A stretch of DNA of 64,000 bases from Geobacteraceae bacterium GWC2_53_11 (GTDB taxonomy: Bacteria > Desulfobacterota > Desulfuromonadia > Geobacterales > Pseudopelobacteraceae), in assembly GCA_001802645.1 (NCBI GenBank), contig MGZJ01000041.1:83422-147421 (forward strand), written 5' to 3'. This document shows, one piece after another, positions 16,952 through 64,000 of the stretch. Below the pieces are notes generated by a model. It did not search any database and had not been told where the DNA came from. It was given only the letters and a program-made list of their open reading frames with translations. The stretch's first letter is position 1. The number at the start of each line of letters is the position of its first letter. The position numbers were made by a program, and so were the translations under genes.

Positions 16952-16982
16952 CCGGAATAAAGGCACATTTTGGCATAATAAA

Positions 16983-17017
16983 ATGAGGGCTACAGCAAAA
17001 GCTGCAGCCCTCATTTT
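16983..17017. terminator. Bidirectional terminator between the convergent MCP genes
   Basis: ATGAGGGCTACAGC-aaaa-GCTGCAGCCCTCAT, flanked by an A-run and a T-run. Confidence 0.6.
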
Positions 17018-17048
17018 TGGTGTACATCCTACGTTCAATTCTGAACGG

Positions 17049-18227: not shown

Positions 18228-18299
18228 AATATTTTCCTCGTTACGTGTTTAATTTTATGCACAAACAGCATGTGACTAACTTATTCATGTATACGCGTT

Positions 18300-19532
18300 T
18301 CAACAAAAGGCATCACGCCAACCGAAAGCCTTGCTCTGGCAACCAAGAACTTTTATGAGTGGGATACCGGCTTGATTGAGAAGTTTCGTTGCTTCATCCA
18401 ACTCAAGACGCTCAATCAGTTCGGCGATAGTAAGCAGCTCTCCCAGAGCGCCTTCACGACGGACCAAAGCGTTTTGGATTTCTTCGGACAGATTGAGCCC
18501 CTCGATCATTTCGTCAATTGTGAAGCCAAAACAATCTCCCAAAAGAGAAAGGGTCCCTACCATAAACGCTTCTGCTGGAGCGTCAGGCAATGTGCAGGTG
18601 CCGGGATGCAGCAGTGCCAGTTTTTCCAAAAAAGCGGCACGTACCGCGACCATATCCATCAACGGGTTATCCAGTTCCTGGCTGTCGTCATTGGCAAAAA
18701 GAGCCAGTTGCACCCAGCGTTTAAGCTGTTCCAGCCCTAAAAGCGTTATGGCGTGAGTAACCGTGCGAATTTTTTCGCGGCGCCCGACGGAAACAGAATT
18801 TACAAGAAGAAGGAGTTTATAGGTCAAAGCTGGACTTAGCTTGAATGTGCGCTCGATTTTGGCAATATCTGAATCGTCAATTAACTGCTGCATTAATTTG
18901 AAAAAGGTATGCGTTGAATCTGAAATCTTTTTTTTCTGTAGCGTTGAAGGACGTGAAAAGAAAAATCCCTGAAACAACTCGAAACCCATGCTGCGGCTCC
19001 GAAGATAGACGTGACGTGTTTCAACATTTTCCGCCAGCAACTTGAGCGGGTAACGCTTCAGACTGTCAACCGTCTGGTATACCCGTTCAAGCGGTGTCTT
19101 GATGAGATCAATCTTGATTATATCTATGATACCTTTATATAACTCCTCATATTCACTCGAATATACATGGTCATCAAGCGCAAGAACGTAACCGAGAGAT
19201 TTTAATTCACGACAACGAGTAATTACTTCAGGTGTAAATTCGATTGAATTAAGTAACTCCAACCCCAATACTCCGGCAGGCAGTAACTCGATCGAATCAC
19301 TCATCAGCATTTCGCCGTCTACATTAATGAGTCCACAATACGTTCCAAGAACATCCTCTATTTTAAACCCGGAGAGCGAATTGACGACTACTTGTGAAGT
19401 GGCCTGGAGAGAACTTTTTATATTGGCGGAACCTGGAGACTCCTGTGACCTGAACAAGAGTTCGTAAAATGTGATTTTTTCAAGCCGGTCCAGAATCGGC
19501 TGTCTACCTATTAAATATGAGCTATCCTTCAT
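18300..19532 (-). CDS. EAL + HDOD domain protein (c-di-GMP phosphodiesterase or sensor type)
   Basis: N-terminal IGRQPILDRLEKITFYELLFRS (ELL variant of the EAL motif), KIDLIK, AENVE and QGFFFSRP. The C-terminal half is HDOD-like. Confidence 0.8.
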   Translation of the reverse strand: MKDSSYLIGRQPILDRLEKITFYELLFRSQESPGSANIKSSLQATSQVVVNSLSGFKIEDVLGTYCGLINVDGEMLMSDSIELLPAGVLGLELLNSIEFTPEVITRCRELKSLGYVLALDDHVYSSEYEELYKGIIDIIKIDLIKTPLERVYQTVDSLKRYPLKLLAENVETRHVYLRSRSMGFELFQGFFFSRPSTLQKKKISDSTHTFFKLMQQLIDDSDIAKIERTFKLSPALTYKLLLLVNSVSVGRREKIRTVTHAITLLGLEQLKRWVQLALFANDDSQELDNPLMDMVAVRAAFLEKLALLHPGTCTLPDAPAEAFMVGTLSLLGDCFGFTIDEMIEGLNLSEEIQNALVRREGALGELLTIAELIERLELDEATKLLNQAGIPLIKVLGCQSKAFGWRDAFC

Positions 19533-19659
19533 GGTATTCCCGTATTCAGTAGGTTACTCTAGCACTAACACTACGAACTCAGGCCGGAAGCCTGTATTAG
19601 TCATTCGAAGTCAAACAGACCTCATTATCGTAACAAACCCGTAGCATTTGGCAATGGGG

Positions 19660-19887
19660 CTAAAACATATTTCCTTCTCCATACAGCAAGAAATCTCTAT
19701 CGATCCTGTGAATATCTATAATCTTATCAAGCGTTTTATCTGAAGGAAAAGAACTGCCCTTTTCCCAGGCGCTGACGGCAGCGGGTGTCATATCGATCTT
19801 TTCGGCAAATTCCCCCTGCGTCTGGCCAAGCATTTCTCTTACAATTTTCAGATTGCGTGAAAATGTTTTTTTCGTGAACCGATCCAT
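19660..19887 (-). CDS. XRE-family helix-turn-helix protein
   Basis: LKIVREMLGQTQGEFAEKIDMTPAAVSAWEKG is a typical HTH_3. ORF trimmed to ATG 19887 (GAGG upstream). Confidence 0.75.
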   Translation of the reverse strand: MDRFTKKTFSRNLKIVREMLGQTQGEFAEKIDMTPAAVSAWEKGSSFPSDKTLDKIIDIHRIDRDFLLYGEGNMF

Positions 19888-19977
19888 CAACACACCTCGT
19901 TATGTAAGTTAGTCTCAGCAAAACGAATTTCACACCGCTCCATATAATTTGAAATAATAAATTACCACCAATTAATC

Positions 19978-20011
19978 ACAAAAAAAGCCCTTCTCTGTTG
20001 AAAGAAGGGCT
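19978..20011 (-). terminator. Intrinsic terminator (expression platform of the GEMM-I riboswitch)
   Basis: Minus strand reads AGCCCTTCTTTC-aaca-GAGAAGGGCT followed by TTTTTTTG, immediately 3' of the aptamer and 5' of the HTH gene. Confidence 0.6.
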
Positions 20012-20020
20012 GACAATCGC

Positions 20021-20105
20021 CCTCTATTTGGTAACCCGACTATCCTTTACAGGACTCGTAGCTTTGCGTCCCCAGGTCACCCTGAGTTTGCCTTTTACAA
20101 AGAGG
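20021..20105 (-). promoter_or_regulatory. GEMM-I cyclic-dinucleotide riboswitch aptamer
   Basis: Minus strand reads CCUCUUUGUAAAAGGCAAACUCAGG-GUGA-CCUGGGGACGCAAAGCUACGAGUCC...GUCGGGUUACCAAAUAGAGG. The hallmark GGCAAAC, GNRA loop, GGGACGCAAAGC, GGGUUACC and a closing CCUCU/AGAGG helix are all present. Confidence 0.75.
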
Positions 20106-20127
20106 TAGTTCTTATTTTTAGGGTTTC

Positions 20128-20156
20128 AAACTATCCTTGCCTATAAACCTTGTCAA
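20128..20156 (-). promoter_or_regulatory. Candidate sigma-70 promoter for the riboswitch-led transcript
   Basis: Minus strand TTGACA, 17 nt, TAGTTT, located about 20 nt upstream of the aptamer. Confidence 0.35.
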
Positions 20157-20171
20157 GAACAAAAGATTATG

Positions 20172-20210
20172 GAAAAATAAAAAAGGACCTACGAATTAAC
20201 GTAAGTCCTT
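20172..20210 (-). terminator. Terminator downstream of tRNA-Arg
   Basis: Minus strand AGGACTTACG-ttaatt-CGTAGGTCCT followed by TTTTTTATTTTT. Confidence 0.5.
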
Positions 20211-20218
20211 GATTTTTT

Positions 20219-20295
20219 TGGTGCGCCTGGAGCGATTCGAACGCCCGACCTACGGATTCGTAGTCCGTTGCTCTATCCAGCTGAGCTACAAGCGC
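20219..20295 (-). tRNA. tRNA-Arg (anticodon ACG)
   Basis: The reverse complement GCGCTTGTAGCTCAGCTGGATAGAGCAACGGACTACGAATCCGTAGGTCGGGCGTTCGAATCGCTCCAGGCGCACCA folds as a cloverleaf. The anticodon loop is CT-ACG-AA and the CCA end is encoded. Confidence 0.95.
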
Positions 20296-20462
20296 GTTAG
20301 GAATTGGCTTTATACCTCACCGGAAATAATATATCAACTATTTTTTTGACCAATAATGCAAATTCAGACATTTCTCAACTAATATCACTACCAAATAGTG
20401 CCGTTTTCAGATATCCTCGCACTCATGTTGAATAGCAACTTATGTTACAAAGGCTTTGATTT

Positions 20463-20780
20463 ATGGATCATTTTATCATTGAAATAAGCGAAGCAGACGT
20501 AAAGCGGGAGCGGGAAAAGTCGCGGGAGCTTCGCAAAAGCCGCTGGTGGAAAAACCGCGTGGCCCTGGGGCGCTGCCACTATTGCGGCGAAATATTTGCT
20601 CCTGAAGAGCTGACCATGGACCATCTGGTCCCGGTTTCACGTGGGGGCAAGGCATCACGTAACAACGTAGTCCCGGCCTGCAAGGAGTGCAACAGCCGAA
20701 AAAAATATCTGCTCCCGATTGAGTGGGAAGAATACCTGGACAAGAACAGCCGTCCGACGCCGGAGCCAACCAGTGAATAA
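20463..20780 (+). CDS. Small HNH endonuclease
   Basis: CHYCG...DHLVPVSRGG...NNVVPACKECNSRK (HNH ββα-metal finger with two CxxC pairs). 105 aa. Confidence 0.8.
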   Translation: MDHFIIEISEADVKREREKSRELRKSRWWKNRVALGRCHYCGEIFAPEELTMDHLVPVSRGGKASRNNVVPACKECNSRKKYLLPIEWEEYLDKNSRPTPEPTSE

Positions 20781-21405
20781 CGTAAAAAGCCGCTATAAAG
20801 TTATCATTTACGATTGTGATGGAGTCATTCTTGATTCAGTCGAATCCAACTACATTTTCTACAACCGGGTCATGGAATTTCTCGGCAGGGACGAGATTAA
20901 CAGAGATAACGAAGATGCCAGAAGAGTTCTTCACACGTATTCGTTTAAGGACGTGATGGAATATTTTTTTGGTGAAGACCCCCAACATGAAGCGGCCCTC
21001 AGTTTTGCCAAGACCATTCACTATCGCGATCTTATGCCTTACATGAAAATGGAGGACGGCTTTGTCAGCACGCTGAATCAATTGAAAGGACATGCATCCC
21101 TGGCAATATGCACCAACCGGGCAACATCAATGGAGATGATTATTGAGGACTTCGGATTGAACGGTTATTTCGAATATGTCATGACGGCGTCGCAGGTAAC
21201 CCACCCCAAACCACACCCGGAACCGCTTTTGAAGGTACTTGACTACTTTAACATCGCTCCGTGGGAAGCCCTCTTTGTAGGCGATGGCGAGGTCGATATG
21301 CTGGCAGCCAAAGAAGCCGGCGTTCCCTTCATCTCCTACAAATCTCAGCTACCGGCACTGGCCCGTATCCAGCATCACTCCGAAATCGTTCAATACATCT
21401 TCTGA
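20773..21405 (+). CDS. HAD-superfamily hydrolase (phosphatase)
   Basis: Motif I YDCDGVILDS and motif IV FVGDGEVD. The longest ORF starts at TTG 20719. GTG 20773 is preferred (GGAG upstream; overlaps the HNH stop). Confidence 0.7.
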   Translation: MNNVKSRYKVIIYDCDGVILDSVESNYIFYNRVMEFLGRDEINRDNEDARRVLHTYSFKDVMEYFFGEDPQHEAALSFAKTIHYRDLMPYMKMEDGFVSTLNQLKGHASLAICTNRATSMEMIIEDFGLNGYFEYVMTASQVTHPKPHPEPLLKVLDYFNIAPWEALFVGDGEVDMLAAKEAGVPFISYKSQLPALARIQHHSEIVQYIF

Positions 21406-21412
21406 AAATTGA

Positions 21413-21444
21413 AAGGCTCCGGGATTATTAGACCTCGGAGCCTT
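21413..21444. terminator. Hairpin between convergent genes (weak terminator candidate)
   Basis: AAGGCTCCG-14 nt-CGGAGCCTT. There is no strong T-run. Confidence 0.3.
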
Positions 21445-21463
21445 AAATACAGAATGCCGCCCT

Positions 21464-22030
21464 TTATCTCACCAGTTTCGACAACTTTTTGAATTCATCC
21501 GTCCCGGCAATTTTCAGCAGCTGAAACAGGACCGACTCCGTGCTGGTTGGCACGGCTCCGGCCAGTGTCATAGCCTGGAGCGCCGTCTGCCAGTTCTGCT
21601 TGCTGCGGCTCATGACAGCATCCTTGACAATGTGAACGTTAAAACCGGCTTCCCGCAGTTCGATCACTGTCTGGAGAACGCATACGTGGGCTTCCATACC
21701 GGTAATGATCACCTGCGTCCTGCCGGTTGCCTTGAGCGCAGCAATAAAATCGGTGCAACCGCAACAACTGAAGGTCATCTTTTCAAAATTTGCCGCTTTG
21801 TCAGCTTTTTCCTGCAATTCCGGCAGAGTCGCACCCAACCCCTTGACATACTGCTCGGTCACCAGCACCGGTACATCCAGTTCGGCAGCGCTTTCCAGCA
21901 GAATGCCGATATTCTTCGTCAGTTTTTTGAGCACATGGTCGTCCATGGCAACACACAACTTCTCCTGCACATCGATCACCACCAGCACCGCCCTGTCCCG
22001 CTCCAGAAAAAAAGTGTCCCTGATTGTCAT
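21464..22030 (-). CDS. Isochorismatase-family cysteine hydrolase
   Basis: VLVVIDVQEK... and VIITGMEAHVCVLQT (catalytic Cys context). 188 aa. Confidence 0.8.
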   Translation of the reverse strand: MTIRDTFFLERDRAVLVVIDVQEKLCVAMDDHVLKKLTKNIGILLESAAELDVPVLVTEQYVKGLGATLPELQEKADKAANFEKMTFSCCGCTDFIAALKATGRTQVIITGMEAHVCVLQTVIELREAGFNVHIVKDAVMSRSKQNWQTALQAMTLAGAVPTSTESVLFQLLKIAGTDEFKKLSKLVR

Positions 22031-52170: not shown

Positions 52171-52826
52171 TCATCCGGGCCGCCTTCTTCGATCTTGACG
52201 GCACCCTGGTTGACTCGCTACAGGATCTGACCGATGCCGTCAACCATATCAGGGGCGCCTTTTCCCTGGCACCGCTGAGCGAGGGCGAAGTGCGCCTGAA
52301 AGTCGGCAAAGGGGCCCGCAATCTGATCGAGCAGGTTCTGCCCGGCCATGCCGCCCCTGATATCAGCCGTGCGCTTGACCTGTTTCTGGAGTACAACGGG
52401 CAGCACATTGCCGACAAAAGCCGCCTCTATCCCGGTATTCCGGAAACGCTCCACGAGCTGGCCGCCCGCGACATCAGGATGGTGGTCATCTCCAACAAGC
52501 ATGAAGAGTTGAGCAGGCTGATCCTCCGCGAGCTCGGCATCCATGACCGGTTCGAAAACATCTGCGGCGGCAATACCTACCCGGAGTGCAAACCGTCTCC
52601 CCTCCCCCTGCTCAAAGAAGCGGAAAAACTGGGGTACGCGCCATTCGAGTGCGTCATGGTCGGCGACAGCATCAACGACATCGAAGCCGGCAAGCGGGCC
52701 AACATCACCGCGATCGCCTGCACCTGGGGCTATGGCAACCGGGACGAACTGGCCGGGGCCGACTGCTTTGTCCATACCCCGCTGGAACTGCAGGCAGCAA
52801 TTGCGGCGTGCGGTGTACCGCGATGA
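52167..52826 (+). CDS. HAD-family phosphatase (phosphoglycolate phosphatase-like)
   Basis: AAFFDLDGTLVDS and MVGDSINDIEAG. ATG 52167 overlaps the yhbY stop (ATGA). Confidence 0.75.
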   Translation: MIIRAAFFDLDGTLVDSLQDLTDAVNHIRGAFSLAPLSEGEVRLKVGKGARNLIEQVLPGHAAPDISRALDLFLEYNGQHIADKSRLYPGIPETLHELAARDIRMVVISNKHEELSRLILRELGIHDRFENICGGNTYPECKPSPLPLLKEAEKLGYAPFECVMVGDSINDIEAGKRANITAIACTWGYGNRDELAGADCFVHTPLELQAAIAACGVPR

Positions 52827-54562
52827 ACGGCTGGCACGGCAGAATACTCAAGGTTGACCTGACGACCGGCACCTCGCACATCGAGGAAATCCCCCGCACC
52901 CTGCTGGAAGAATACCTGGGGGGGCGCGGCCTCGGCGTACGGCTGATGCGCGACTACTACCACCTCGACCCGTTCGATCCCGACATGCCGCTGATCTTCG
53001 CCGTCGGACCCTTGTGCGGCACCCCTTCCCCTACCTCAGCCCGTTTGTCCGTTGTCTCCCGTTCACCGCTGACCGGCACCATTTACGACTGTTCCGCCGG
53101 AGGTCGCTTTGCCTGGCGCCTGAAGGCATCCGGCATTGATGCTCTGATGATCACCGGCAGAAGCCCCTGGCCGGTCATGCTCGCCATTGCCCCCGGCAAC
53201 GTCGAGATAATCCCTGCGGTGGCACTGTGGGGATGCGACCTTCCTGACACCTTTGCCGCGCTGAAGGAACGGGGCAGCGTGGCGGCCATCGGCCCGGCCG
53301 GAGAAAACGGCGTCCTCTTTGCCAATATCATGATGGGGGAAGGGAACTCGGTCGGCCGCGGCGGCATGGGCGCGGTCATGGGGATCAAGAACCTGAAGGC
53401 GGTAACGGTAACCGGCGAGCAGAAAACCAACATTGCCGACCCGGTACTGTTTGACAAGGCCCGCCAGGACATCATGCGCCTGTTCAAGGCATCGCCGGTG
53501 ATCTTCGGGCCCCTGGGAATTTCCGAGTTCGGCACTCCGGTGCTGGTCGATCTGATGGCACAGCGCCGCATGGCCCCGACGGCAAACTTCCGCAAGACCT
53601 TCTTCGAAAATTCCGGCAACTATTCCGGCCCGACGATAAAAGAAGCCTGCGGAGCAAAAAAAGACGGCTGCTACGGCTGTCCGATCCAGTGCAAAAAATC
53701 ATCCGGAGCAGGCAAGGCGCTGCCGGAATACGAAACCGTTTCCCATTTCGGCGCGCTGAACAACATTGACGCCCTGCACAGCATTATTAAATCGAATGAC
53801 CTGTGCAACGAACTGGGCATGGACACCATCACGGCAGCAGCCACCCTTTCGGCGTGGGGGGAAATCAGGGGCGTGTTTCCGACCGCCGAAGAGCTGCCGG
53901 GGCTGCTGAACGACATCGCCAACCGGCAGGGAGATGGCGAACTGCTGGCGCTCGGCTCGCGCCGTCTGTCGGAGCAACTGGGGCACCCGGAACTTTCCAT
54001 GAGCGTCAAATCGCTGGAACTGCCGGCCTACGACCCGCGCGGCGCCTACGGCATGGCGCTGGCCTACTGCACCAGCAACCGGGGCGGCTGCCACCTGCGC
54101 GCCTACCCCATCTCCCACGAAATCCTGCGCAAACCGGTGCCGACCGACCGTTTCTCCTTCTCGGGCAAAGCCCGTATCATCAGCATCGCCGAGGACACCA
54201 ACGCCGCCGTTGACAGTCTGGTCGCCTGCAAATTCGCCTTCTTCGGCGCCAGCCTGGAAGAGTACGCCGAGCTGCTGACCGCCGTCACCGGCATCGCCTA
54301 TTCGCCGCAGCGTCTGAAGGAGATCGGCAAACGCATCGTGCTGACCGAGCGCTTTTACAACTGCGCCAACGGTTTCTCGCGCAAAGACGATATGTTGCCG
54401 GAGCGGTTTTTCTCGGAGGCCGGGAGCAGCGGCGACGAGATCGATATCCATCCCATTGACCGGGTGCGTTTCGAGGAAGAGCTGGACAAGTACTATCGCA
54501 TTCGCGGATTGAATGGTGATGGCTGCTTTGATGATGGTGATTTTTTGGCAGGGCAGCCGTGA
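52823..54562 (+). CDS. Aldehyde:ferredoxin oxidoreductase family (tungstopterin) enzyme
   Basis: MNGWHGRILKVDLTTG..., and the sequence is AOR-like through the N and C domains (GCPIQC Fe-S ligand region). ATG 52823 overlaps the upstream stop. Confidence 0.85.
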   Translation: MNGWHGRILKVDLTTGTSHIEEIPRTLLEEYLGGRGLGVRLMRDYYHLDPFDPDMPLIFAVGPLCGTPSPTSARLSVVSRSPLTGTIYDCSAGGRFAWRLKASGIDALMITGRSPWPVMLAIAPGNVEIIPAVALWGCDLPDTFAALKERGSVAAIGPAGENGVLFANIMMGEGNSVGRGGMGAVMGIKNLKAVTVTGEQKTNIADPVLFDKARQDIMRLFKASPVIFGPLGISEFGTPVLVDLMAQRRMAPTANFRKTFFENSGNYSGPTIKEACGAKKDGCYGCPIQCKKSSGAGKALPEYETVSHFGALNNIDALHSIIKSNDLCNELGMDTITAAATLSAWGEIRGVFPTAEELPGLLNDIANRQGDGELLALGSRRLSEQLGHPELSMSVKSLELPAYDPRGAYGMALAYCTSNRGGCHLRAYPISHEILRKPVPTDRFSFSGKARIISIAEDTNAAVDSLVACKFAFFGASLEEYAELLTAVTGIAYSPQRLKEIGKRIVLTERFYNCANGFSRKDDMLPERFFSEAGSSGDEIDIHPIDRVRFEEELDKYYRIRGLNGDGCFDDGDFLAGQP

Positions 54563-54645
54563 ATCTGCTTTGACGCAAAGACGTATTGACTCCCACCTGC
54601 ACATTCTATAAAATATCCTATAATAAATAATAGAAAGGAGCCTAT

Positions 54646-54906
54646 ATGACGGTTTTAGCGCGTCAGGCAAATTTCATGATTCCCGATGACCTTTTGAATG
54701 ATCTAAAACAACTGGTTGGCATGCGTCAGCAAAGCCGGTTTGTTGCGGAGGCAATACGCAAGGAGCTTCAGCGCGAAAAGATGAAGAATGCCTTGAAGAA
54801 TAGTTTTGGCGCATGGAAAGATGAAGACCATCCTGAGCTGAAAGATGGCGTTGACCACTATGTCCGGAGCCAACGCAAATCTACCCGTCTGGATCGTACC
54901 ACATGA
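54646..54906 (+). CDS. vapB: Ribbon-helix-helix (CopG/VapB-type) antitoxin
   Basis: 86 aa containing ANFMIPDDLLNDLKQLV...SRFVAEAIRKEL. Overlaps the PIN gene start by 4 nt. Confidence 0.7.
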   Translation: MTVLARQANFMIPDDLLNDLKQLVGMRQQSRFVAEAIRKELQREKMKNALKNSFGAWKDEDHPELKDGVDHYVRSQRKSTRLDRTT

Positions 54907-55283
54907 GCAGCCTGCTTCTGGATACCGATATCCTTATCAACCTGCTGCGCGGCAATGTGGCGGCTCGGGATTTTCTTGCGGACAGTCTGGAAGAGCATGA
55001 GCTGTGTTGTTCGGTGATTTCCATTGCGGAGATCTGGACCGGTATGCGTCCGCATGAAGAGCAGGCAACGAGGAGGCTGGTGGACTCGCTCAAGATTGTC
55101 GAGATAAACCGGACAATAGCGGAGAAGGCAGGGAGTTTTAAAGGGACAACAAAAAGCCATGCCCTGGAACTGGATGATTGCCTGATTGCGGCAACCGCGT
55201 TTTGTACAGGAGCAACGCTGGCAACAGGTAATGGCAAACATTATCCAATGAAGGAAATACGCAAGGTCGTGGTGAAGATGTAG
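54903..55283 (+). CDS. vapC: PIN-domain toxin
   Basis: LLLDTDILINLL..., with conserved acidic residues (D, E, D) spaced as in VapC. 126 aa. Confidence 0.85.
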   Translation: MSSLLLDTDILINLLRGNVAARDFLADSLEEHELCCSVISIAEIWTGMRPHEEQATRRLVDSLKIVEINRTIAEKAGSFKGTTKSHALELDDCLIAATAFCTGATLATGNGKHYPMKEIRKVVVKM

Positions 55284-55418
55284 CAGATTAGCTGCTCACC
55301 TATCACTGTGTATGAAGACAGTGACCTGCCGTTTCAGGTTGATCTTGTTGAGTGGGCGGGGTCAAGTGAGGAGTTCAGGAAGGTGATTGCTGCGACGGCG
55401 AAGGTGCTTGGAGGCTGA
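55284..55418 (+). pseudogene. Possible remnant of a nucleotidyltransferase-type (MntA-like) gene C-terminus
   Basis: Open frame ...ITVYEDSDLPFQVDLVEWAGSSEEFRKVIAATAKVLGG* with no credible start or RBS. Resembles the C-terminal VDLV...FR..I tail of minimal nucleotidyltransferases. Confidence 0.2.
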
Positions 55419-55504
55419 GCGATAAAGCTATCTGTAGCACAGGTGGCGGCAAACACAGCGCGAATGGCTCATAATAACGAATTTGTCTAGTAGAAGGCTT
55501 TTAC

Positions 55505-58500
55505 ATGGCTGCAGCCGACCTTTTGAAAATCAGAGCATTGAATGGAAGCAAACATTACTCATTCGAGGAGCTATGTTGCCAGTTGGCCTCATTGGAAGCA
55601 AGGCAGCCAGGAACGTCGTTTGTACGTAAAGGTTCTGGTGCCGACGCCGGAGTTGAGTGTTTTCTTCATAACGCAGACAATACCGAGATTGGTTGGCAGG
55701 CAAAGTTTTTCGATGGTTTCACATCAGGACAAGCCTCTCAATTAACGGAATCATTTTCCCACGCCATTGAAAAACATCCAAGATTAATAAGATACATTGT
55801 TTGTTTGCCAATCGATCTCAAAGATGGGCGAACCGGAAAAGAGAAATCGGAAGGACAGCGCTGGGAAGATTGGAAAGCTGCTCGTCTTAAAGAAATAACA
55901 AAGCTAGGTCGCACGGTAGATATTGAGCTTTGGCAAGCAACAAATATCCGGGAGAGACTATACCGTCAAGACCCGTATTATTCTGGAAGAATGCAGTTTT
56001 TCTTTGATGAGTTGCATTTTTCAACTGAATGGTTTCTCAGCAAATTCAGAATTTCCTGTGATGTTCTAGGAGCACGCTATACCCCGCAATTTCATGTTTC
56101 GTTACCGATCAGGCAATCCTTTTTGGGAATTATGCGTGATGTAGCACTTGACGACCAGCGTACAGTGTTAGTTCAACAACTTCACAAGAAGTTTAAGTCG
56201 TTAAAAACGACTCTGATCAGTACACCATTGCCGCAAACAACACTTCAGTCACTGAATGAGCATGGGCAAAAATTTATTGAATCCATGAGGGGACATTTTT
56301 CAGTTGCAGAGGATTTCCCGCTAACAGAGTGGAGGTCATTGGTTGATGATTTGAATAATGTGGTTCGTGAATGTTTCGAGTTCCTATGGCCACTTGACAA
56401 GGAGGATGTTGACGACTCCATAAGGAAAACGAGTCGTACGGCTCTCAACTCGTTATTCGAATTCAAGAATTCAGTTAGTGACCTCAACGAGGTTCTTCAT
56501 AGCAAAGCCTGGAAACTGGCAAACGAGCATGCAGTATTAGTTTTTGGCGATGCCGGAGTTGGGAAGTCGCATCTGTTGGCTGATATAGCTGCCGACACCA
56601 TTAAAAACGGGTGTCCCGCCATTTTGCTGATCAGCAGCCAGTTCTTTCCACAAGACCCCCGTACCCAGATTTTAGAGCATTTGGATATGCGCGGATTGAC
56701 GTTTGATGCTTTTCTTGGTGCCTTGGATGCCGCAGGCCAGGCTGCGGGACAACGTGCTGTGATTATGATTGATGCGTTGAACGAACGATACGGCATTGAA
56801 TTGTGGAGCGAGCATCTTGCGACACTAATTAGTGAAGTGAAGCGGTTCCCACATGTTTCGCTGATCGTTTCATGTCGATCCACCTATCTAAATGCACTGT
56901 TTCCTGCGGATTCTCCACTCTGCGAAAGCCTACCACGCATTGAACATCATGGATTTTCCGACGATGGTGGACGTGCTGCGCGTGCGTATTTGGCCCAACG
57001 GAACGTCGTGCGCCCGAGTGCTCCAAACTTATTACCTGAATTCAATAATCCACTATTTCTCAAAACATGCTGTGACAGCCTGGATAACCAGGGTTTAAAG
57101 GAGTTTCCACGAGGCGTACAAGGGATATCACAGTATTTCAGCTTTTATCTGCAGTCCTTGACCAAGGCAATTGAAACACGGATGAGATTGGATAAGTACC
57201 AGAAAATTGTCCAACGTGCATTGGACGGGCTGACCCAACGCATGCTATCAACATGCTCTTCATATCTCCCTTTAGATGATGCAATCTCCTGTTTGGAAAC
57301 CGTGTTGCCGTCAATGGGGCAACAGGATCGAAGCTTGGTGAGTGAGCTTGAGCATGAAGGCATCATAACGATTGAGCCTGTATATACTGGAACAAATCAG
57401 CTTGAAGAGCAGGTGCGTTTTACCTTTGAACGTTTCAGCGACTTTCAGATTGCCTCATATTTGCTTCAGACCCATCTTCAAAATTGCCATTCTTTGCGAC
57501 CGCTGGAAGCCACCAGCCCGCTACAGCTCTTTTTGGAAAGGGACGATATTTATCGCTTCGCTGGTATTGTTGACGCATTGGCGGTTATCCTGCCAGAACA
57601 AGCGGATATCGAGTTCCCTGAGCTATTTTCGGAAGAAGACTGTAATTGGGTTATTGAAGAAGCTTTTTTGAATAGCCTGCTTTTGCGCCGACAGGATAAG
57701 TTCACGGAGAAAACAAAAAATCTCGTAATACAGTATTCAAATAGACACCAGAACCATTGGCTGACAACGTTAATTGCAGTAACCACAGGACCGGACAACC
57801 CTTTTAACAGCCGTTATCTTCATGACAAACTGGCACCGCTCACTATGCCGGAACGAGATGCCTACTGGTCTGTGCCAATAGCAGAGCTCGGCCTGGAAGA
57901 GGGTTCTCCACTCGACATACTGCTTTGCTGGGCATTGGAATCAGGTTTTGACGATATTGAACCAGTACGCGCTGAGTTATCGGCAATTGCCTTAACATGG
58001 TTGTTCTCAACATCACACCGAACTATTCGGGATCGAGCCACAAAATCACTGTCAGCATTGCTCGCGCCGCGTTTGGCATTGGCATTCACTCTGATTGAGC
58101 GCTTTCGACTTGTTGATGACCTTTACGTCATTGAGCGAATGTTGGCTGCCATTTATGGTGCGGCTCTACAGGCTAAATCTCATGACGGGGTAGCTGTACT
58201 AGCAACGGCGGTTTATGACTGGCAATTTGCAGATGGTAAACCGCCTGCTCATGTACTGTTACGCGACTATGCTCGTGGCATTGCCGAATATGCAAACTAT
58301 TTGGGTGTGTTACCTGCTGGCATTGAACTGGAGCTGATTCGTCCACCATATAGCAGCGATTGGCCAATTGAGTATGTTTCAGAAAAAGAGCTGGAAAAAT
58401 ATACAGATAGTCGTGATGCCTACAGAGATGAAATTGTTCAATCAGCTGGCAGTGAATGGACCGGAGATTTTGCCAAGTATATATTGCCCCGGTTGTCAGC

Positions 58501-58561
58501 CACTGGACGGCAACCCCCCTTGGCAATAGCGCTGCATTGTCCCCGTTCGAGGCTTTCATAA
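55505..58561 (+). CDS. Large NACHT/STAND-like P-loop NTPase with N-terminal Mrr-like PD-(D/E)xK nuclease motif (candidate defence protein, N-terminal part)
   Basis: N-terminus: FEELCCQL...GSGADAGVECFL...EIGWQAKFF (D/E...QxK). Walker A VFGDAGVGKSHLL (about nt 56540-56580) and Walker B AVIMIDALNE. Followed by about 600 aa of helical sequence. The region is AT-richer than its flanks. Confidence 0.6.
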   Translation: MAAADLLKIRALNGSKHYSFEELCCQLASLEARQPGTSFVRKGSGADAGVECFLHNADNTEIGWQAKFFDGFTSGQASQLTESFSHAIEKHPRLIRYIVCLPIDLKDGRTGKEKSEGQRWEDWKAARLKEITKLGRTVDIELWQATNIRERLYRQDPYYSGRMQFFFDELHFSTEWFLSKFRISCDVLGARYTPQFHVSLPIRQSFLGIMRDVALDDQRTVLVQQLHKKFKSLKTTLISTPLPQTTLQSLNEHGQKFIESMRGHFSVAEDFPLTEWRSLVDDLNNVVRECFEFLWPLDKEDVDDSIRKTSRTALNSLFEFKNSVSDLNEVLHSKAWKLANEHAVLVFGDAGVGKSHLLADIAADTIKNGCPAILLISSQFFPQDPRTQILEHLDMRGLTFDAFLGALDAAGQAAGQRAVIMIDALNERYGIELWSEHLATLISEVKRFPHVSLIVSCRSTYLNALFPADSPLCESLPRIEHHGFSDDGGRAARAYLAQRNVVRPSAPNLLPEFNNPLFLKTCCDSLDNQGLKEFPRGVQGISQYFSFYLQSLTKAIETRMRLDKYQKIVQRALDGLTQRMLSTCSSYLPLDDAISCLETVLPSMGQQDRSLVSELEHEGIITIEPVYTGTNQLEEQVRFTFERFSDFQIASYLLQTHLQNCHSLRPLEATSPLQLFLERDDIYRFAGIVDALAVILPEQADIEFPELFSEEDCNWVIEEAFLNSLLLRRQDKFTEKTKNLVIQYSNRHQNHWLTTLIAVTTGPDNPFNSRYLHDKLAPLTMPERDAYWSVPIAELGLEEGSPLDILLCWALESGFDDIEPVRAELSAIALTWLFSTSHRTIRDRATKSLSALLAPRLALAFTLIERFRLVDDLYVIERMLAAIYGAALQAKSHDGVAVLATAVYDWQFADGKPPAHVLLRDYARGIAEYANYLGVLPAGIELELIRPPYSSDWPIEYVSEKELEKYTDSRDAYRDEIVQSAGSEWTGDFAKYILPRLSATGRQPPLAIALHCPRSRLS

Positions 58562-60048
58562 AATTTACAGAATATGTTTCAGAAAATGGGACAGATGCCC
58601 AGCGACAACATCTCTCCGATCTCCTCGAATTTTGTAGGAAGTGTTTTAAAGAAGATCTGAAAGATAATTCTGACGACGAAAGTGATAAGTCGGATATATC
58701 TACTCCCATAAAAATCAGGTTTGTCTCAAAAAGTGACGACTATTGGCAGCGTAGAAAGGAGAATGAAGAGCGGTTCAAAGAGCTTGAAAACGCGCTACTC
58801 GATGTCCTTGATAATAATTTTCAGTACAATTATCAAACGTGCGCACGGCATTATCTATCAGGGTTGATAAACGGTTATACGAGTGATAGACCTGATTCAT
58901 TTGATGTGTTATTGGCACAACGATGGGTATGCAAGCGGGCTCATGAATATGGCTGGTCAAATGAGTTTTTTGGAGAATTTGATAAACGAATTGGCACTGG
59001 GAGAGGCCGCAATGACAAGCATATAGAGCGCATCGGCAAGAAATACCAGTGGCTCGCATTATATGAATTGCTGGCTCGAATGGCTGACAACCTGATCTAC
59101 AAATCCAGTTTCAGTGATGAAGCTGAAGCATATAAAGGATCTTGGCAAATTTCGGAACGAAATATTGACCCCTCTTTATTGATCAAAAAAACTCAAGATG
59201 ATGGTTGGAAGAAGCATCCGGCAGTGTGGTGGTCGCCGGTGTCGCTTCGGTTGAAACACTTGAATAAAAGCGAACAGCAGCTTTGGCTGGACAACGATTC
59301 AGATCAACTCAACTGCGCTTCATTCATTGATGTAACTGAACCATTGAGCGATCAACGCTGGCTGGTGCTGAAAGGATTCAAGCATTATGGTACGCCATAC
59401 GATATGGGCTCGCACATCGACTCTTGGTGTCGTATCTGGTGTATTGTGCTTCCGAAAAATCAAACGAAGCGATTTATTGCTGCAATTGCTAAACAGACTT
59501 TGATTGATACTCATGCATTGCCTACAGCAGTCCACCTGGGAGACTCCTTTGTTGGTGAGTATCCTTGGCATCCAGCGTGCTCAATTGAGGACGAATGGAA
59601 AACCACCGACTGGCACACCGGATATAGTGGCAAAGTATTGCCAACAGTTTCGGAAATTGAGAAGGGGACTGGAGGGTATGACTATTCTCTGGAGCAAAAT
59701 CTAAGTTTTTATCTTCCAGCACCATGGATTATACAAAAGCTCGGCATGCAACTCGTAGATGGGCGGGAATTGTGTTTTGCCAATCATTCAGGCTTGACGC
59801 TATTTAAAGACCCTTCGATTCATGAACTGGGGCCAAGCGCAGCGTTGATAGATAAGGCAGCATTTATTGAACTGTTGGAGAAAGAAAGCTTATCTCCGGT
59901 ATGGATTATCGCCGGTGAAAAAGGAGCTTATGGAGAGCATACCGACGATTTTGTCGGGCGACGAGTGCACTCCTTTGTTTATGAATTGGATGTCACCAAC
60001 ACTGTTGTATGCACAAAGCAGTATGTGACGCATGAAAGACGACACTAA
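58456..60048 (+). CDS. Unknown-function protein: either the C-terminal continuation of 55505..58561 (frame-shifted) or a separate partner gene
   Basis: Overlaps the preceding ORF by 106 nt in the -1 frame and has no RBS before ATG 58456. No recognisable catalytic motif. Contains ERIGKKYQWLALYELLARMADN. Confidence 0.5.
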   Translation: MDRRFCQVYIAPVVSHWTATPLGNSAALSPFEAFIKFTEYVSENGTDAQRQHLSDLLEFCRKCFKEDLKDNSDDESDKSDISTPIKIRFVSKSDDYWQRRKENEERFKELENALLDVLDNNFQYNYQTCARHYLSGLINGYTSDRPDSFDVLLAQRWVCKRAHEYGWSNEFFGEFDKRIGTGRGRNDKHIERIGKKYQWLALYELLARMADNLIYKSSFSDEAEAYKGSWQISERNIDPSLLIKKTQDDGWKKHPAVWWSPVSLRLKHLNKSEQQLWLDNDSDQLNCASFIDVTEPLSDQRWLVLKGFKHYGTPYDMGSHIDSWCRIWCIVLPKNQTKRFIAAIAKQTLIDTHALPTAVHLGDSFVGEYPWHPACSIEDEWKTTDWHTGYSGKVLPTVSEIEKGTGGYDYSLEQNLSFYLPAPWIIQKLGMQLVDGRELCFANHSGLTLFKDPSIHELGPSAALIDKAAFIELLEKESLSPVWIIAGEKGAYGEHTDDFVGRRVHSFVYELDVTNTVVCTKQYVTHERRH

Positions 60049-60080
60049 CGCCAGAAAGAATCTGTGCATAAGGCACCCCA

Positions 60081-60506
60081 GTGAACCCTTTTAAAAACCT
60101 CCTCTCAAAAGCCCCCTCCCCTCCCCCCGCAACCTCTGGCAACAAAGGTACCGGCGAACTGGGCGAAGAGGTTGCGACAAATTTCCTGATCGCGCGCGGC
60201 TACCGGATCGTGGAGCGCAACTTCCGCTGCAAGGGGGGCGAGGTTGACATCATTGCCAGTGATCCGGGGGACAAGAGCCTGGTCTTCGTCGAGGTCAAGG
60301 CCCGCACCGGGCTGTCCTACGGCGTGCCGCAGCTGGCGGTGACCCCGTTCAAACAGCGCCAGATTTCCAAGGCGGCGCTGACCTGGCTCTCGAAAAAGAA
60401 GCTGCATGACACCAACGCACGGTTTGACGTTATCGCTATTCTGTTGCATACTGGCGGCCAGCACGCCATCGACCATATCAAAAACGCTTTTGACTTGGCA
60501 TATTGA
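60081..60506 (+). CDS. yraN: YraN-family (UPF0102) endonuclease-like protein
   Basis: GELGEEVATNFLIARGYRIVERNFRCKGGEVDIIA...LVFVEVKAR. GTG start. Confidence 0.8.
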   Translation: MNPFKNLLSKAPSPPPATSGNKGTGELGEEVATNFLIARGYRIVERNFRCKGGEVDIIASDPGDKSLVFVEVKARTGLSYGVPQLAVTPFKQRQISKAALTWLSKKKLHDTNARFDVIAILLHTGGQHAIDHIKNAFDLAY

Positions 60507-60520
60507 CGAGAGGTTGTTTT

Positions 60521-60697
60521 ATGAAGGCGCAAACCACTCATGTAGTTGTGCTTGATCCCTTGAAACAGATGAACTCATCGATTGTTGCCAAAAGTCGCAG
60601 AAAACTGATCATGGAAATCAGCCAGAAAGTGCGGACTGAAAGCATGAAAGTTAATGCCGAGTTTAGCGTCATTGAGGACACCCAGAACGATAACTAA
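60521..60697 (+). CDS. Small hypothetical protein (58 aa)
   Basis: ATG 60521 preceded by GAGAGG. No recognisable motif. Confidence 0.25.
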   Translation: MKAQTTHVVVLDPLKQMNSSIVAKSRRKLIMEISQKVRTESMKVNAEFSVIEDTQNDN

Positions 60698-60752
60698 GTA
60701 CGAAGAATATGCGATTAGTTTCAGGTAATGTATTACAATTTTAGGAGTTGTC

Positions 60753-61601
60753 ATGGATTTCACCGCCGTTCTGGCGCAAATCAAACCCAAGCTCGGCTGC
60801 GTTGCCGACAATCTGGCGCTCATCGAAGAAGAGATCGCCTCGGCGCAAGCAGCGGGAGCAGACCTGATCGTTTTCCCGGAACTGGCTCTGTCCGGCTATT
60901 TCCTGAAAGACCTGGTACCCGAGGTTGCCCGGCGCATCGATGCCCCCGAAATCCTCCGGCTGATCGAGCTTTCCAAAGACATTTCCATCGCCATCGGTTT
61001 TGTCGAAGAGACCGATGACTATCACTTTTTCAACTCGGCTCTCTACCTGGAAGACGGCGCCATCCGCCACCTGCACCGCAAGGTATACCTGCCAACCTAC
61101 GGGTTGTTCGACGAGCAGCGCTACCTGGCCCGTGGCGAAGCGTTCCGGGCATTTGACACCAAATTCGGCCGTTTCGGCATGCTGATCTGCGAGGACATGT
61201 GGCACCTGTCCGCCTCCTATATCCTGGCCATGGACGGCGCAACGACGCTGCTCTGCCTCTCCAGCAGCCCGGCGCGCGGCATCGAAGGGGACTCGCTCGG
61301 TTCGGCTTCGGCGTGGCAAAAGCTGACCTCGACCACCGCCCTGTTCCTCAACTGCCGGGTGCTCTACTGCAACCGGGTCGGTTTCGAGGATGGCGTCAAT
61401 TTCTGGGGAGGCTCGGAATATATCGCCCCATCGGGAGAATCGGTCGTGCGCGGCGCACTGATGGAAACAGACCAGGTCACTGCATCCGTCAATGAGGGTG
61501 CACTGCGCCGGGAACGGATTTTTTCGCCGATGATGCGGGACGAGAACCTGTTCGTGACGATGCAGGAACTGGGGCGCATCGCCCGTGAAAGGGGGCGCTG
61601 A
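60753..61601 (+). CDS. Carbon-nitrogen hydrolase (nitrilase superfamily), probable glutaminase partner of NadE
   Basis: The Glu, Lys and Cys contexts ([26 protein letters not shown]) match the CN-hydrolase triad. Its stop overlaps the nadE start (TGATG). Confidence 0.8.
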
Positions 61602-62422
61602 TGTCCGCACTGGTTGCCAATACGGATTTACTGAGAAAACTGCTGGTCGGCTTTGTGCGGGATGAAGTGCGCAAAGTCGGCGTCAGCAACGTGGTACTGG
61701 GACTGTCCGGCGGGATTGATTCCGCCCTGGTGGCGTTCATCGCCGCCGAGGCACTGGGGCCGGACAACGTCCATGCCATCTGCATGCCCTACAAGTCCAG
61801 CAACCCGGAGAGCGAGGCGCATGCGCGGCTGGTGGCCAAGGCATGCGGGGTCAATTTTTCGGTAGTGCCGATCACGCCGATGGTGGACGCCTATTTCGAC
61901 CTGTTCTCCGACGCCAACAACATGCGGCGCGGCAACAAGATGGCCCGTGAGCGGATGACGATCCTGTTCGATCATTCGGCGCTGCTGCGCGCCCTGGTGC
62001 TTGGCACCAGCAACAAAACGGAACTGCTGCTGGGCTACGGCACGCTCTATGGCGATATGGCCTCAGCTTTGAACCCGATCGGCGACATCTACAAAAGCCA
62101 GGTTTGGCAGCTTTCGGAAGCCATGGGCGTTCCGCAGGAAGTGATCGACAAGAAGCCCTCCGCCGACCTCTGGGCCGGGCAGACCGACGAAGAAGAGCTT
62201 GGCTTTTCATACCGCCAGGTGGATGAACTGCTCTACCGCATGGTGGATCAACGCTGGACAAAGGCGGAGCTGGTTGCCGGCGGTTTCGAGAGCGAGTTTG
62301 TCGAGTCGATCTACGACAAGATTCAGAATTCACATTTCAAGCGACGCCTGCCGGTCATCGCCAAGGTGTCAAACCGCACGATCGACCGCGATTTCAGATA
62401 TGCGAGGGATTGGGGCAAATGA
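61601..62422 (+). CDS. nadE: NAD+ synthetase (synthetase domain only)
   Basis: [12 protein letters not shown] is the N-type ATP pyrophosphatase SGGxDS motif. 273 aa. Confidence 0.9.
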
Positions 62423-62760
62423 CAAATTGGGCCGACAGCATCCCCGTTTATTCAACAGAATCTGGGCGAATAAAACAGAAACAGAACAGTTCCGCAGCAA
62501 AACCGGCGCCCCAGATAAATGACGGTTTTGTCCGGCTGCGCCGCGAAGTTAAAGGGCGCGGCGGCGGCACCGTAATCGTCATTAACGGCATAATGCTTCC
62601 GGCGCATGAGCTTAAGGAACTTGCAGGAACGCTCAAGAAAAAGTGCGGTTGCGGCGGCACGGTCAAGGACGGCATTATCGAAATCCAGGGCGATCATCGC
62701 GATACGATTGCGGCAGAACTACAGGCGTGCGGTTTCAAGGTAAAGCTGGCAGGCGGATAG
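62410..62760 (+). CDS. yciH: SUI1/YciH translation initiation factor-like protein
   Basis: [20 protein letters not shown]...[24 protein letters not shown] is the SUI1 signature. Confidence 0.8.
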
Positions 62761-62787
62761 GTATACCGCATATTATTTAATAATTCC

Positions 62788-62816
62788 TTGACCTATTAAA
62801 GATTATCACCTATCTT
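62788..62816 (+). promoter_or_regulatory. Candidate sigma-70 promoter upstream of tRNA-Leu
   Basis: TTGACC, 17 nt, TATCTT. Confidence 0.3.
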
Positions 62817-62879
62817 TATAAATCTTTTTATCCAGGCAAGCTAAAACCATGATCAATCGTTTCATGGTTCACGACAGAT

Positions 62880-62964
62880 GCGAGAGTGGCGGAATTGGCA
62901 GACGCACCAGACTTAGGATCTGGCACCTCACGGTATAGGAGTTCAAGTCTCCTCTCTCGCACCA
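62880..62964 (+). tRNA. tRNA-Leu (anticodon TAG)
   Basis: GCGAGAGTGGCGGAATTGGCAGACGCACCAGACTTAGGATCTGG... with a long variable arm, T-arm GGAGTTCAAGTCTCC and an encoded CCA. Confidence 0.95.
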
Positions 62965-63041
62965 TCCAAATTTCCCGATGTTTGTTTCGTAAGTTCTTCA
63001 CATGCAAACATTACATTTCACCATAGAAGAGGATAGCCATC

Positions 63042-64000
63042 ATGCAGGTTCACGTCGAAGACATCAGTTCGGTTCAGAAGAAAGTTACCATCGAAATTCC
63101 CGTTGCACAGGTTAACGAAGAAATTGACAAGGCGTATGCCGCAATCCAGAAAAAAGCCAAGCTCCAGGGTTTCCGCCCCGGCAAGGCACCGATGCAACTC
63201 ATCAAGCGCACCTACGCCGATGCCATGCGTGACGACGTCATGCGCCGCCTCTATCAGCAGACGCTCTACAAGGCGCTTGATGACCACAAGGTAGAGCCGA
63301 TTGATTCTCCCGTTATCGAGAGCGATATCCTTGAACCAGGCGTTCCGTTCAAATACAGCGCTCTGTGCGAAGTCATGCCGCAGATCCTGCTGAATGAATA
63401 TACCGGCCTTGTCGCAAACAAAGAAAAGTTTGCCCCGAAACCGGAAAACGTCGATGCAGAACTGAAACGTATGCAGGAAAATATGGCGCAATTGATTCCG
63501 CTTGATGAAGGCGCCGCTATTGAAAATGGCCACACTGTTTCTGTCGATTATTCTATTACCGTCGAAGGTTCACCTGAAGAAAACAGCGGCAATCAGAGTG
63601 CTGAGGTTGAAGTTGGCTCCAACCGTCTGCTGCCAGGCTTTGAAGAGCAATTGATCGGCCTGAAAGCCGGCGACTCCAAGGAGTTCACCCTCGATCTTCC
63701 GGCAGGAGACGAAGCTTCGGAAGAGGCTGCAAAAAAAGGCATTTTCAGCGTTACCGTTAAAGAGATCAAGCGCAAGGAACTTCCAGAACTGGATAACGAT
63801 TTCGCACAGCAGTTCGGCGAGTACGACACCATCGAAGACCTGCGGGCCAAAATGGTAGAGTATCACGAGAAGCATGAGAAAGATCGCATAGAGAACGAGT
63901 TTAAAGAACGCGTCATCCAGGATCTGATCAAAAGAAATCCGTTAGATGTTCCCGAATCAATGGTAAAGCGTCAATTGGATCACATGTTTGAGAACCTGAA
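63042..64000 (+). CDS. tig: Trigger factor (5' part; continues beyond the window)
   Basis: My own translation from ATG 63042 gives MQVHVEDISSVQKKVTIEIPVAQVNEEIDKAYAAIQKKAKLQGFRPGKAPMQLIKRTY..., which is canonical Tig. It is absent from the ORF track because no stop codon falls within the window. Confidence 0.9.
   Translation, partial: MQVHVEDISSVQKKVTIEIPVAQVNEEIDKAYAAIQKKAKLQGFRPGKAPMQLIKRTYADAMRDDVMRRLYQQTLYKALDDHKVEPIDSPVIESDILEPGVPFKYSALCEVMPQILLNEYTGLVANKEKFAPKPENVDAELKRMQENMAQLIPLDEGAAIENGHTVSVDYSITVEGSPEENSGNQSAEVEVGSNRLLPGFEEQLIGLKAGDSKEFTLDLPAGDEASEEAAKKGIFSVTVKEIKRKELPELDNDFAQQFGEYDTIEDLRAKMVEYHEKHEKDRIENEFKERVIQDLIKRNPLDVPESMVKRQLDHMFENL

Follow-up and report, generated by a model that had tools for sequence, protein, structure and literature searches.

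The DNA analysed here, referred to as the window, is a stretch of 64,000 nucleotides (nt) from Geobacteraceae bacterium GWC2_53_11, a metagenome-assembled genome (MAG) obtained from a groundwater metagenome and recognised by a 100% protein match in GenBank. An island has been found in it between an aor gene (AFOR_N/AFOR_C, stop at 54562) and the yraN/UPF0102 gene (60081-60506). The island begins with a vapBC toxin–antitoxin pair and a gene remnant, and continues with a 4.5-kb AT-rich stretch whose predicted product is Avs2 (AVAST type 2), a member of an already characterised family. The GC content is 0.41-0.50 within the Avs2 region versus 0.60-0.64 in the flanks (aor and the downstream genes). 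This layout, including the flanking genes, the pair, the remnant and the AT-richer composition, had been described in an earlier reading made from the letters of the window (hereafter the sequence-only reading), and it was recovered in full. The same reading proposed a protein of about 1,500 amino acids (aa). As the sequence stands, there is no single open reading frame (ORF) of that size, and the gene is present as two ORFs, of 1018 and 530 aa, which overlap and lie in different frames. The restoration of one deleted base at 58483 gives a protein of 1514 aa, otherwise free of stops; the proposed size holds for this repaired protein, and the frameshift had been hinted at only by the word "repaired". 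The features of the Avs2 gene are the following:

55491..60048, + strand: Avs2 gene unit, with boundaries set by blastn.
55505..58561, + strand: Avs2 ORF1, 1018 aa, native to Ile993 (58483), then 25 out-of-frame residues and a stop.
55505..56044, + strand: N-terminal Mrr-like PD-(D/E)xK nuclease, aa 1-180, with core residues E21/E22, D47, E51, E61 and Q65-A-K67.
56513..56896, + strand: STAND NTPase nucleotide-binding core, aa 337-464, placed by weak Pfam matches and by alignment to the 9o4e ATPase.
56546-56572, + strand: Walker A motif GDAGVGKSH, aa 348 (K354).
56759-56785, + strand: Walker B motif VIMIDALNE, aa 419 (D423, E427).
56897..58483, + strand: remaining ATPase module and helical TPR sensor domain, aa ~465-993, from the 9o4e_A alignment, with approximate limits.
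58456..60048, + strand: ORF2, 530 aa, a mechanical ORF with an in-frame ATG at 58456.
58475..58488, + strand: frameshift site, AAGTATAT·ATTGCC, where one T has been lost from the Ile993/Ile994 codons.
58483..60048, + strand: C-terminal Avs2 part in the other frame, aa 994-1514 plus the stop, including the beta-rich sensor, from PADLOC and the 9o4e_A alignment.
58990-59010, + strand: IGTGRGR, identical to EcAvs2 1126-1132, with R1169 corresponding to EcAvs2 R1132.

The assignment to Avs2 is based on profiles and on a known structure. The PADLOC Avs2 model PDLC02164 matches ORF1 with E=0 (aa 4-995 on profile positions 4-997) and ORF2 with E=1.8e-134 (profile positions 991-1498), so that the feature is not a product of chance, and five more PADLOC Avs2 models match both ORFs. 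This search, which had been suggested as a check, therefore finds Avs2 from end to end. When the pieces are taken separately, the NCBIfam Avs2 model gives 692 bits for ORF1 and 275 bits for ORF2, and the repaired protein reaches 982.6 bits against NCBIfam Avs2 NF041813 (aa 188-1496 on profile positions 4-1311 of 1317). The repaired protein has also been aligned to the structure of EcAvs2 (PDB 9O4E, chain 9o4e_A) with E=6.3e-146, aa 170-1479 corresponding to chain residues 163-1451. A search of 5.8 billion protein clusters yielded 562 relatives, mostly of 1,500-1,550 aa among the matches listed; the name given by NCBI to the homologs of about 60% identity is "AVAST type 2 anti-phage system protein Avs2". 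The sequence-only reading had considered the protein undescribed and unplaceable in any named family, and this part of it has to be abandoned. The reader could not name the protein because Pfam alone gives only sub-threshold P-loop matches, with nothing for the N-terminal end or for the C-terminal ORF. The anti-phage role that was suggested is upheld, as the role predicted for an Avs2. In GenBank, both ORFs are labelled as hypothetical (A2076_05240, 100% identical to ORF1, and A2076_05245, a 503-aa product corresponding to ORF2), and these two entries are to be merged and labelled as a frameshifted Avs2; beyond annotation the significance is small. Since Pfam alone misses this protein, a PADLOC, DefenseFinder or NCBIfam scan is advisable before a STAND protein is named as novel. 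The presence of Avs2 here would also mean that terminase-sensing STAND immunity extends to the metal-reducing Desulfuromonadales.

The N-terminal domain was analysed separately because the effector of EcAvs2 does not align with aa 1-170. All the motifs quoted in the sequence-only reading, Walker A and B included, are in their places; those of the effector are FEELCCQL (aa 20), GSGADAGVEC (aa 43) and EIGWQAKFF (aa 61), from which an Mrr-type PD-(D/E)xK nuclease had been proposed. The proposal is confirmed by profile and by fold. In 35 aligned N-termini the residues E21, E22, Q26, D47, E51, E61, W64, Q65 and K67 are invariant, and the same N-terminal residues, including E21, D47, E61, Q65 and K67, show no variation across 106 full-length sequences. 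In the PDB, the N-terminal profile matches best to EcAvs4, in its nuclease domain (8dgf, aa 18-111, E=9.7e-4), and the GWQ-x-KF residues align. An AlphaFold2 model of aa 1-180 (predicted local distance difference test, pLDDT, 89.9; predicted TM-score, pTM, 0.85) has this same EcAvs4 Mrr domain as its top Foldseek match (E=4.4e-4, probability 1.00, TMq 0.53), and SfsA, EcoO109I, LlaBIII, NucS/EndoMS, LmuA, McrC and Cap4 follow as weaker matches (E=0.03-0.3). The effector of 8DGF is named "Mrr" in the literature, where an Mrr-like dsDNA nuclease is described as the effector in most Avs2 homologs. The effector of the window protein is, therefore, that of the commonest Avs2 design.

By homology to EcAvs2, the predicted protein is a STAND NTPase. 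The order of domains is nuclease, helical extension, STAND ATPase, TPR domain and beta-rich C-terminal sensor. The Walker A and B residues are 100% conserved in the 106 sequences. The TPR part is closed by the motif GDFAKY, in which D988, equivalent to EcAvs2 D981, is also 100% conserved. The C-terminal part aligns to 9o4e_A with E=7.6e-34. This stretch had been anticipated as a long sensor arm, which the alignment corroborates, and its last 530 aa had been regarded as devoid of any recognisable motif, whereas they correspond to the C-terminal terminase sensor of Avs2. Among the residues of EcAvs2 that hold the bridging ATP or contact the terminase, those kept are D981 (D988), T1128/R1130/R1132 (IGTGRGR) and E1444 (E1472, in the GEK of aa 1471-1473), and those not conserved are W1266, E1362 and E1364. 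Altogether, the nuclease, Walker A/B, D988 and R1169 positions are 99-100% conserved and are intact in the window copy.

Several characterised systems serve as a reference for this protein. EcAvs2 of E. coli (9O4E; bioRxiv 10.64898/2026.04.30.721860) is homologous in the helical extension, the STAND ATPase, the TPR domain and the sensor; the Walker A lysine, the aspartate of GDF (D981/D988) and the glutamate of GEK are conserved, and IGTGRGR is identical. D981 of EcAvs2 contributes to the retention of the bridging ATP at the interface with the terminase (Evans et al. 2026, bioRxiv 10.64898/2026.04.30.721860). The effector of EcAvs2 is of a rarer, uncharacterised kind, unlike the Mrr-like nuclease of the window protein, whose first ~170 aa cannot be aligned to it, and the EcAvs2 gene does not share the frameshift of the window copy. 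Another example is KpAvs2 of Klebsiella pneumoniae, which, compared by its published description, consists of an Mrr-family endonuclease, a STAND NTPase and the Avs2 C-terminal domain, with K71 and K337 at positions comparable to K67 and K354. The substitutions K71A (nuclease) and K337A (Walker A) abolish defence by KpAvs2 (Béchon et al. 2024, PMC11564622). This system is encoded in an operon with a radical-SAM protein and Avap2, neither of which flanks the window copy, and it also senses Ksap1 and Ksap2. The relation to EcAvs4 (8DGF), the best profile and fold match to aa 1-180, is limited to the effector domain (18-19% identity, TMq 0.48-0.53); EcAvs4 senses the phage portal protein and has an ATPase and a sensor of a different kind. 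Finally, VcAvs2-trypsin-MBL (bioRxiv 10.64898/2026.08.25.746987) shares the Avs2-type sensor and ATPase, and VcAvs2 forms a flat tetramer triggered by the terminase; there, the effector role falls to a trypsin-like protease, by which a separate MBL nuclease is activated, whereas the nuclease of the window protein is fused and has no partner gene.

From EcAvs2, KpAvs2 and VcAvs2, a mechanism can be proposed for the intact protein. The ATPase domain of the phage large terminase, together with a bridging ATP, would be bound in a pocket to which the C-terminal sensor, the TPR domain and the helical extension all contribute. This binding would lead to the ATP-dependent tetramerisation of the STAND domains, which would bring the nuclease domains together and activate the Mrr-like nuclease. 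DNA of any sequence would then be degraded by the activated nucleases, and the infection would be aborted. In the window copy the first product would not contain the C-terminal sensor, and terminase sensing would most likely fail.

The lesion responsible is a deletion of 1 nt, seen relative to both the intact relative at locus L003 and the nearest relative at L008. The site reads AAG TAT ATT ATT GCC in L003 versus AAGTATAT-ATTGCC in the window; in terms of protein, intact relatives have GDFAKYIIAP (KYII at the site), and in the window GDFAKYI and IAPVVSHWTATPLGNSA are encoded in separate frames. The break parts the nuclease, ATPase and TPR domains from the C-terminal sensor (~520 aa). It falls six residues past D988, leaving the other bridging-ATP residues, those of IGTGRGR, in ORF2. 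Since the sensor would be lost from the first product, the window copy has most likely turned into a pseudogene very recently and lost the ability to sense phage. As to its age, the ratio of nonsynonymous to synonymous substitution rates (dN/dS) is 0.14 for the window lineage (0.11 upstream of the break and 0.18 downstream, Fisher p=0.35) and 0.10 for the lineage of the intact L003. The lack of relaxed constraint and the intact functional residues point to a deletion that is probably recent.

Lesions have been also found in other Avs2 homologs (positions in window numbering):

L095: in-frame TAA at ~aa 957.
L090: frameshift, stop and extra sequence at ~aa 950-975.
L093: frameshift in a G5 run at ~aa 984.
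L092: in-frame TAA at aa 1062.
L008: frameshift at ~aa 1402.
L094: gene in three pieces, broken at several positions.
L089: truncation, with homology stopping at ~aa 1000 and a called product of 1139 aa.

Decay is the default reading of these broken homologs, and Avs2 appears to be often disabled, as expected of costly abortive-infection genes.

For the genomic context, 80 loci with an aor ortholog were retrieved from related Geobacteraceae/Desulfuromonadales; aor could be located together with yraN in 37. The majority of these have the two genes directly adjacent (gap about 0), and eight carry other cargo of 1.3-9.1 kb in the slot, which in none of the eight is Avs2. Examples of this cargo are the following:

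L015: Type III restriction–modification system and HEC-01/DUF4276.
L026: reverse transcriptase and vapBC.
L057: vapBC and a TPR protein.
L033: TPR protein.
L053: multihaem cytochrome.

The comparison of the aor–yraN interval had been put forward as a check for a variable hotspot, and it shows a junction that has recurrently received insertions in this clade, defence and toxin–antitoxin cargo among them. Homology of the window at the DNA level to the aor-syntenic loci extends up to 55283 (vapBC), is found again at 55313-55419 and resumes at 60049, and positions 55420-60048 have no match in any of the 80 loci. The closest Avs2 relatives (L003-L008) share with the window only 55491-60048, the latter being the end of the stop codon, and their contexts are unrelated. 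The transferred unit would thus be essentially a bare gene. A transfer of vapBC and Avs2 together was considered and rejected, as the closest Avs2 relatives have no vapBC homolog and share only 55491-60048. A search for direct or inverted repeats at the borders gave only short ones at the level of chance, and no tRNA gene adjoins the island border, the nearest being at 20219 and 62880. Distant homologs, of at most 38.5% identity, were found on 57 plasmids, in consistency with the extensive horizontal transfer of Avs2 reported in the literature.

The reading preferred here, to which a probability of about 0.8 can be given, is that of a horizontally acquired Avs2 of the commonest form that has very recently become a frameshift pseudogene, most likely unable to sense phage. 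Several observations weigh against one or another part of it. The NCBIfam score of the repaired protein is 17 bits below the equivalog cut-off of 1000, which is an annotation threshold and no biological feature. Pfam Mrr_cat (PF04471) does not match ORF1 at E<=0.1, and the Mrr assignment rests on the EcAvs4 domain, through profile and Foldseek, and not on Pfam. Pfam NACHT gives 22.4 bits at aa 343-464 (E=1.2e-4) versus a cut-off of 26.7, and the Pfam matches to AAA_16 and nSTAND3 are also below their cut-offs; from the NACHT-STAND NTPase of the sequence-only reading, the STAND part stands, by the invariant Walker motifs and the homology to EcAvs2, and the NACHT label keeps a weak match. The EcAvs2 terminase contacts W1266, E1362 and E1364 have no conserved counterparts in the window protein, because of which the ligand specificity may perhaps differ from that of EcAvs2, as in the case of KpAvs2. 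The absence of decay downstream of the break is consistent with a recent lesion and also with continued function. Moreover, the source is a MAG, in which the frameshift may reflect a consensus error or conceal an intact minority allele.

This last point leads to the alternative that survives best, an unlikely one, in which the living population holds an intact and functional Avs2 of 1514 aa, and the frameshift has arisen in sequencing or consensus building or represents a minority allele fixed by the assembler. In the case of an artefact, the reads would mostly have TATATTATT at the site. Besides the MAG source, this explanation would account for the soundness of the rest of the gene, with no further stops and all key residues conserved, and for the dN/dS of the window lineage, which is not relaxed 3' of the break. 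It is opposed by the agreement of three assemblies, the NCBI MAG, an ENA assembly of SRR1658466 (L001) and a Logan assembly of SRR3309152 (L002), which represent at least two sequencing runs, are identical over the 4544 bp and all have the deletion. In addition, the site is TATATAT, with no homopolymer, no intact allele of ~100% identity was found among the 5.8 billion protein clusters, and the disabling lesions of the other homologs indicate that decay is common in the family.

A functional split Avs2 is less probable than an artefact. According to this explanation, a chain with the nuclease, ATPase and TPR domains and a separately translated sensor would assemble in trans. The break does lie where the TPR domain gives way to the C-terminal sensor, ORF2 has its in-frame ATG at 58456 and shows no decay, and the literature mentions an Avs1 variant with a split TPR. 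There is also the recurrence of breaks in the family: five of them, counting that of the window copy at aa 993 with those of L090, L092, L093 and L095, fall within aa ~950-1062, near the TPR/sensor boundary. This clustering is confounded by the bias of the queries used, and the lesions differ in kind (a deletion of 1 nt, a frameshift in a G-run, two in-frame TAA codons, and a frameshift with extra sequence), which is the pattern of independent decay. Furthermore, the two ORFs overlap by 106 nt in different frames, no Shine-Dalgarno-like sequence is seen before the ATG at 58456, and D988 and the TGRGR residues, which hold one and the same bridging ATP, end up on opposite sides of the break. With ORF2 as the query, no conserved family of standalone sensors emerged, only 63 fragments (313-908 aa), almost all of them in singleton clusters. 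On account of these heterogeneous fragments and of the different kinds of lesion at the junctions inspected, the split gene was rejected in favour of a decayed Avs2. The recurrent TPR/sensor breaks in five independent loci might otherwise reflect a two-piece Avs2 with a trans-acting sensor that is tolerated or selected, or a dangerous abortive-infection gene that is kept off and yet easily reverted, and such an interpretation is given very little credence here.

Still harder to sustain is the idea that some cells regain a full-length Avs2 by programmed ribosomal frameshifting or by phase variation at the site. In its favour, slipping by -1 after ATA (Ile993) would lead to ATT GCC CCG and give KYIIAPVV exactly as in the homologs. 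Against it, intact relatives encode the residue directly. The site has no slippery heptamer of the X XXY YYZ type, and it is on this absence that programmed frameshifting was rejected; no Rfam family is found in 54000-61000, a search in which a downstream stimulatory structure was not specifically tested. With regard to phase variation, the tract is (TA)3T, with no mononucleotide run, and the slippage of a dinucleotide would change the length by 2 nt. The weakest proposal, a previously undescribed sensor–effector family outside the named defence systems, draws on the hypothetical GenBank products and on Pfam, with its sub-threshold NTPase matches and both ends blank, and has practically no chance against Avs2 profiles that span both ORFs from end to end, the match of the repaired protein to the 9O4E structure and homologs of 60% identity that already bear the Avs2 name.

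Upstream of the Avs2 gene, other features occupy the same slot:

54586..54614, + strand: sigma-70-like promoter match (TTGACT, spacer of 17 nt, TAAAAT), 5' of the toxin–antitoxin pair, from a consensus scan (10/12 positions), a pattern match only.
54646..54906, + strand: VapB-like antitoxin ORF, 86 aa, hotspot cargo separate from Avs2.
54903..55283, + strand: VapC toxin with a PIN domain, 126 aa (Pfam PIN, E=1.6e-13), hotspot cargo separate from Avs2.
55313..55419, + strand: 3' end of a nucleotidyltransferase (MNT-type antitoxin) gene remnant, by DNA similarity to L012.

The promoter scan is uninformative, as the whole region has fewer matches than shuffled sequence, and it gave no match 5' of Avs2. 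The 86-aa ORF overlaps the PIN gene by 4 nt, and a Pfam search with it returned nothing above noise. Its homologs in L026 and L057, 79-80% identical, adjoin PIN genes in the same slot, and the VapC homologs in these two loci are 82-85% identical; from this gene arrangement, the ORF presumably acts as the antitoxin. The remnant is 91.6% identical in DNA to positions 12721-12827 of L012 and corresponds to the last ~35 codons of the gene; its 38 aa alone had no match in a Pfam search. In L012 (12126-12826) the gene is intact, encodes a 107-aa NTP_transf_2 protein and is paired with a HEPN-like NTase_sub_bind gene, which suggests that a HEPN/MNT module has probably decayed at this locus before or upon the arrival of Avs2.

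The neighbourhoods of two Avs2 relatives are of separate interest. L090 is a Methylococcales element that also carries an integrase and TraG; its broken Avs2 is directly preceded by a FitA-RHH/PIN pair (3304-3940). This order mirrors that of vapBC (54646-55283) and Avs2 in the window, and the two PIN genes are not detectably related. In L008 (3274-8991), the nearest relative (93% identity), Avs2 is itself frameshifted at about codon 1402 and lies next to argG, together with a HEPN/nucleotidyltransferase pair and a nuclease-like gene of the DUF1016/YhcG kind. This neighbourhood looks like another small defence or toxin–antitoxin cluster in a different genomic context.

Other observations concern the rest of the window. 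The mechanical ORF of aor (52586-54562) starts at a GTG at 52586 (658 aa), and the gene calls of the matching contig and of the orthologs indicate a start at 52823 (579 aa). A second stretch of lower GC, at 15773-22030 (0.44-0.48 at 18-22 kb), adjoins a tRNA-Arg gene (20219-20295). The cargo of this stretch is ordinary, with two methyl-accepting chemotaxis proteins, an EAL/HDOD protein, a HAD hydrolase and an isochorismatase, and a Pfam scan, the only one made there, found no defence or mobile-element domain. Finally, the GC content falls to about 0.47-0.50 at 62000-64000, after nadE and around a tRNA-Leu gene (62880-62964), and the genes downstream in the matching contig encode SUI1, trigger factor and ClpP.

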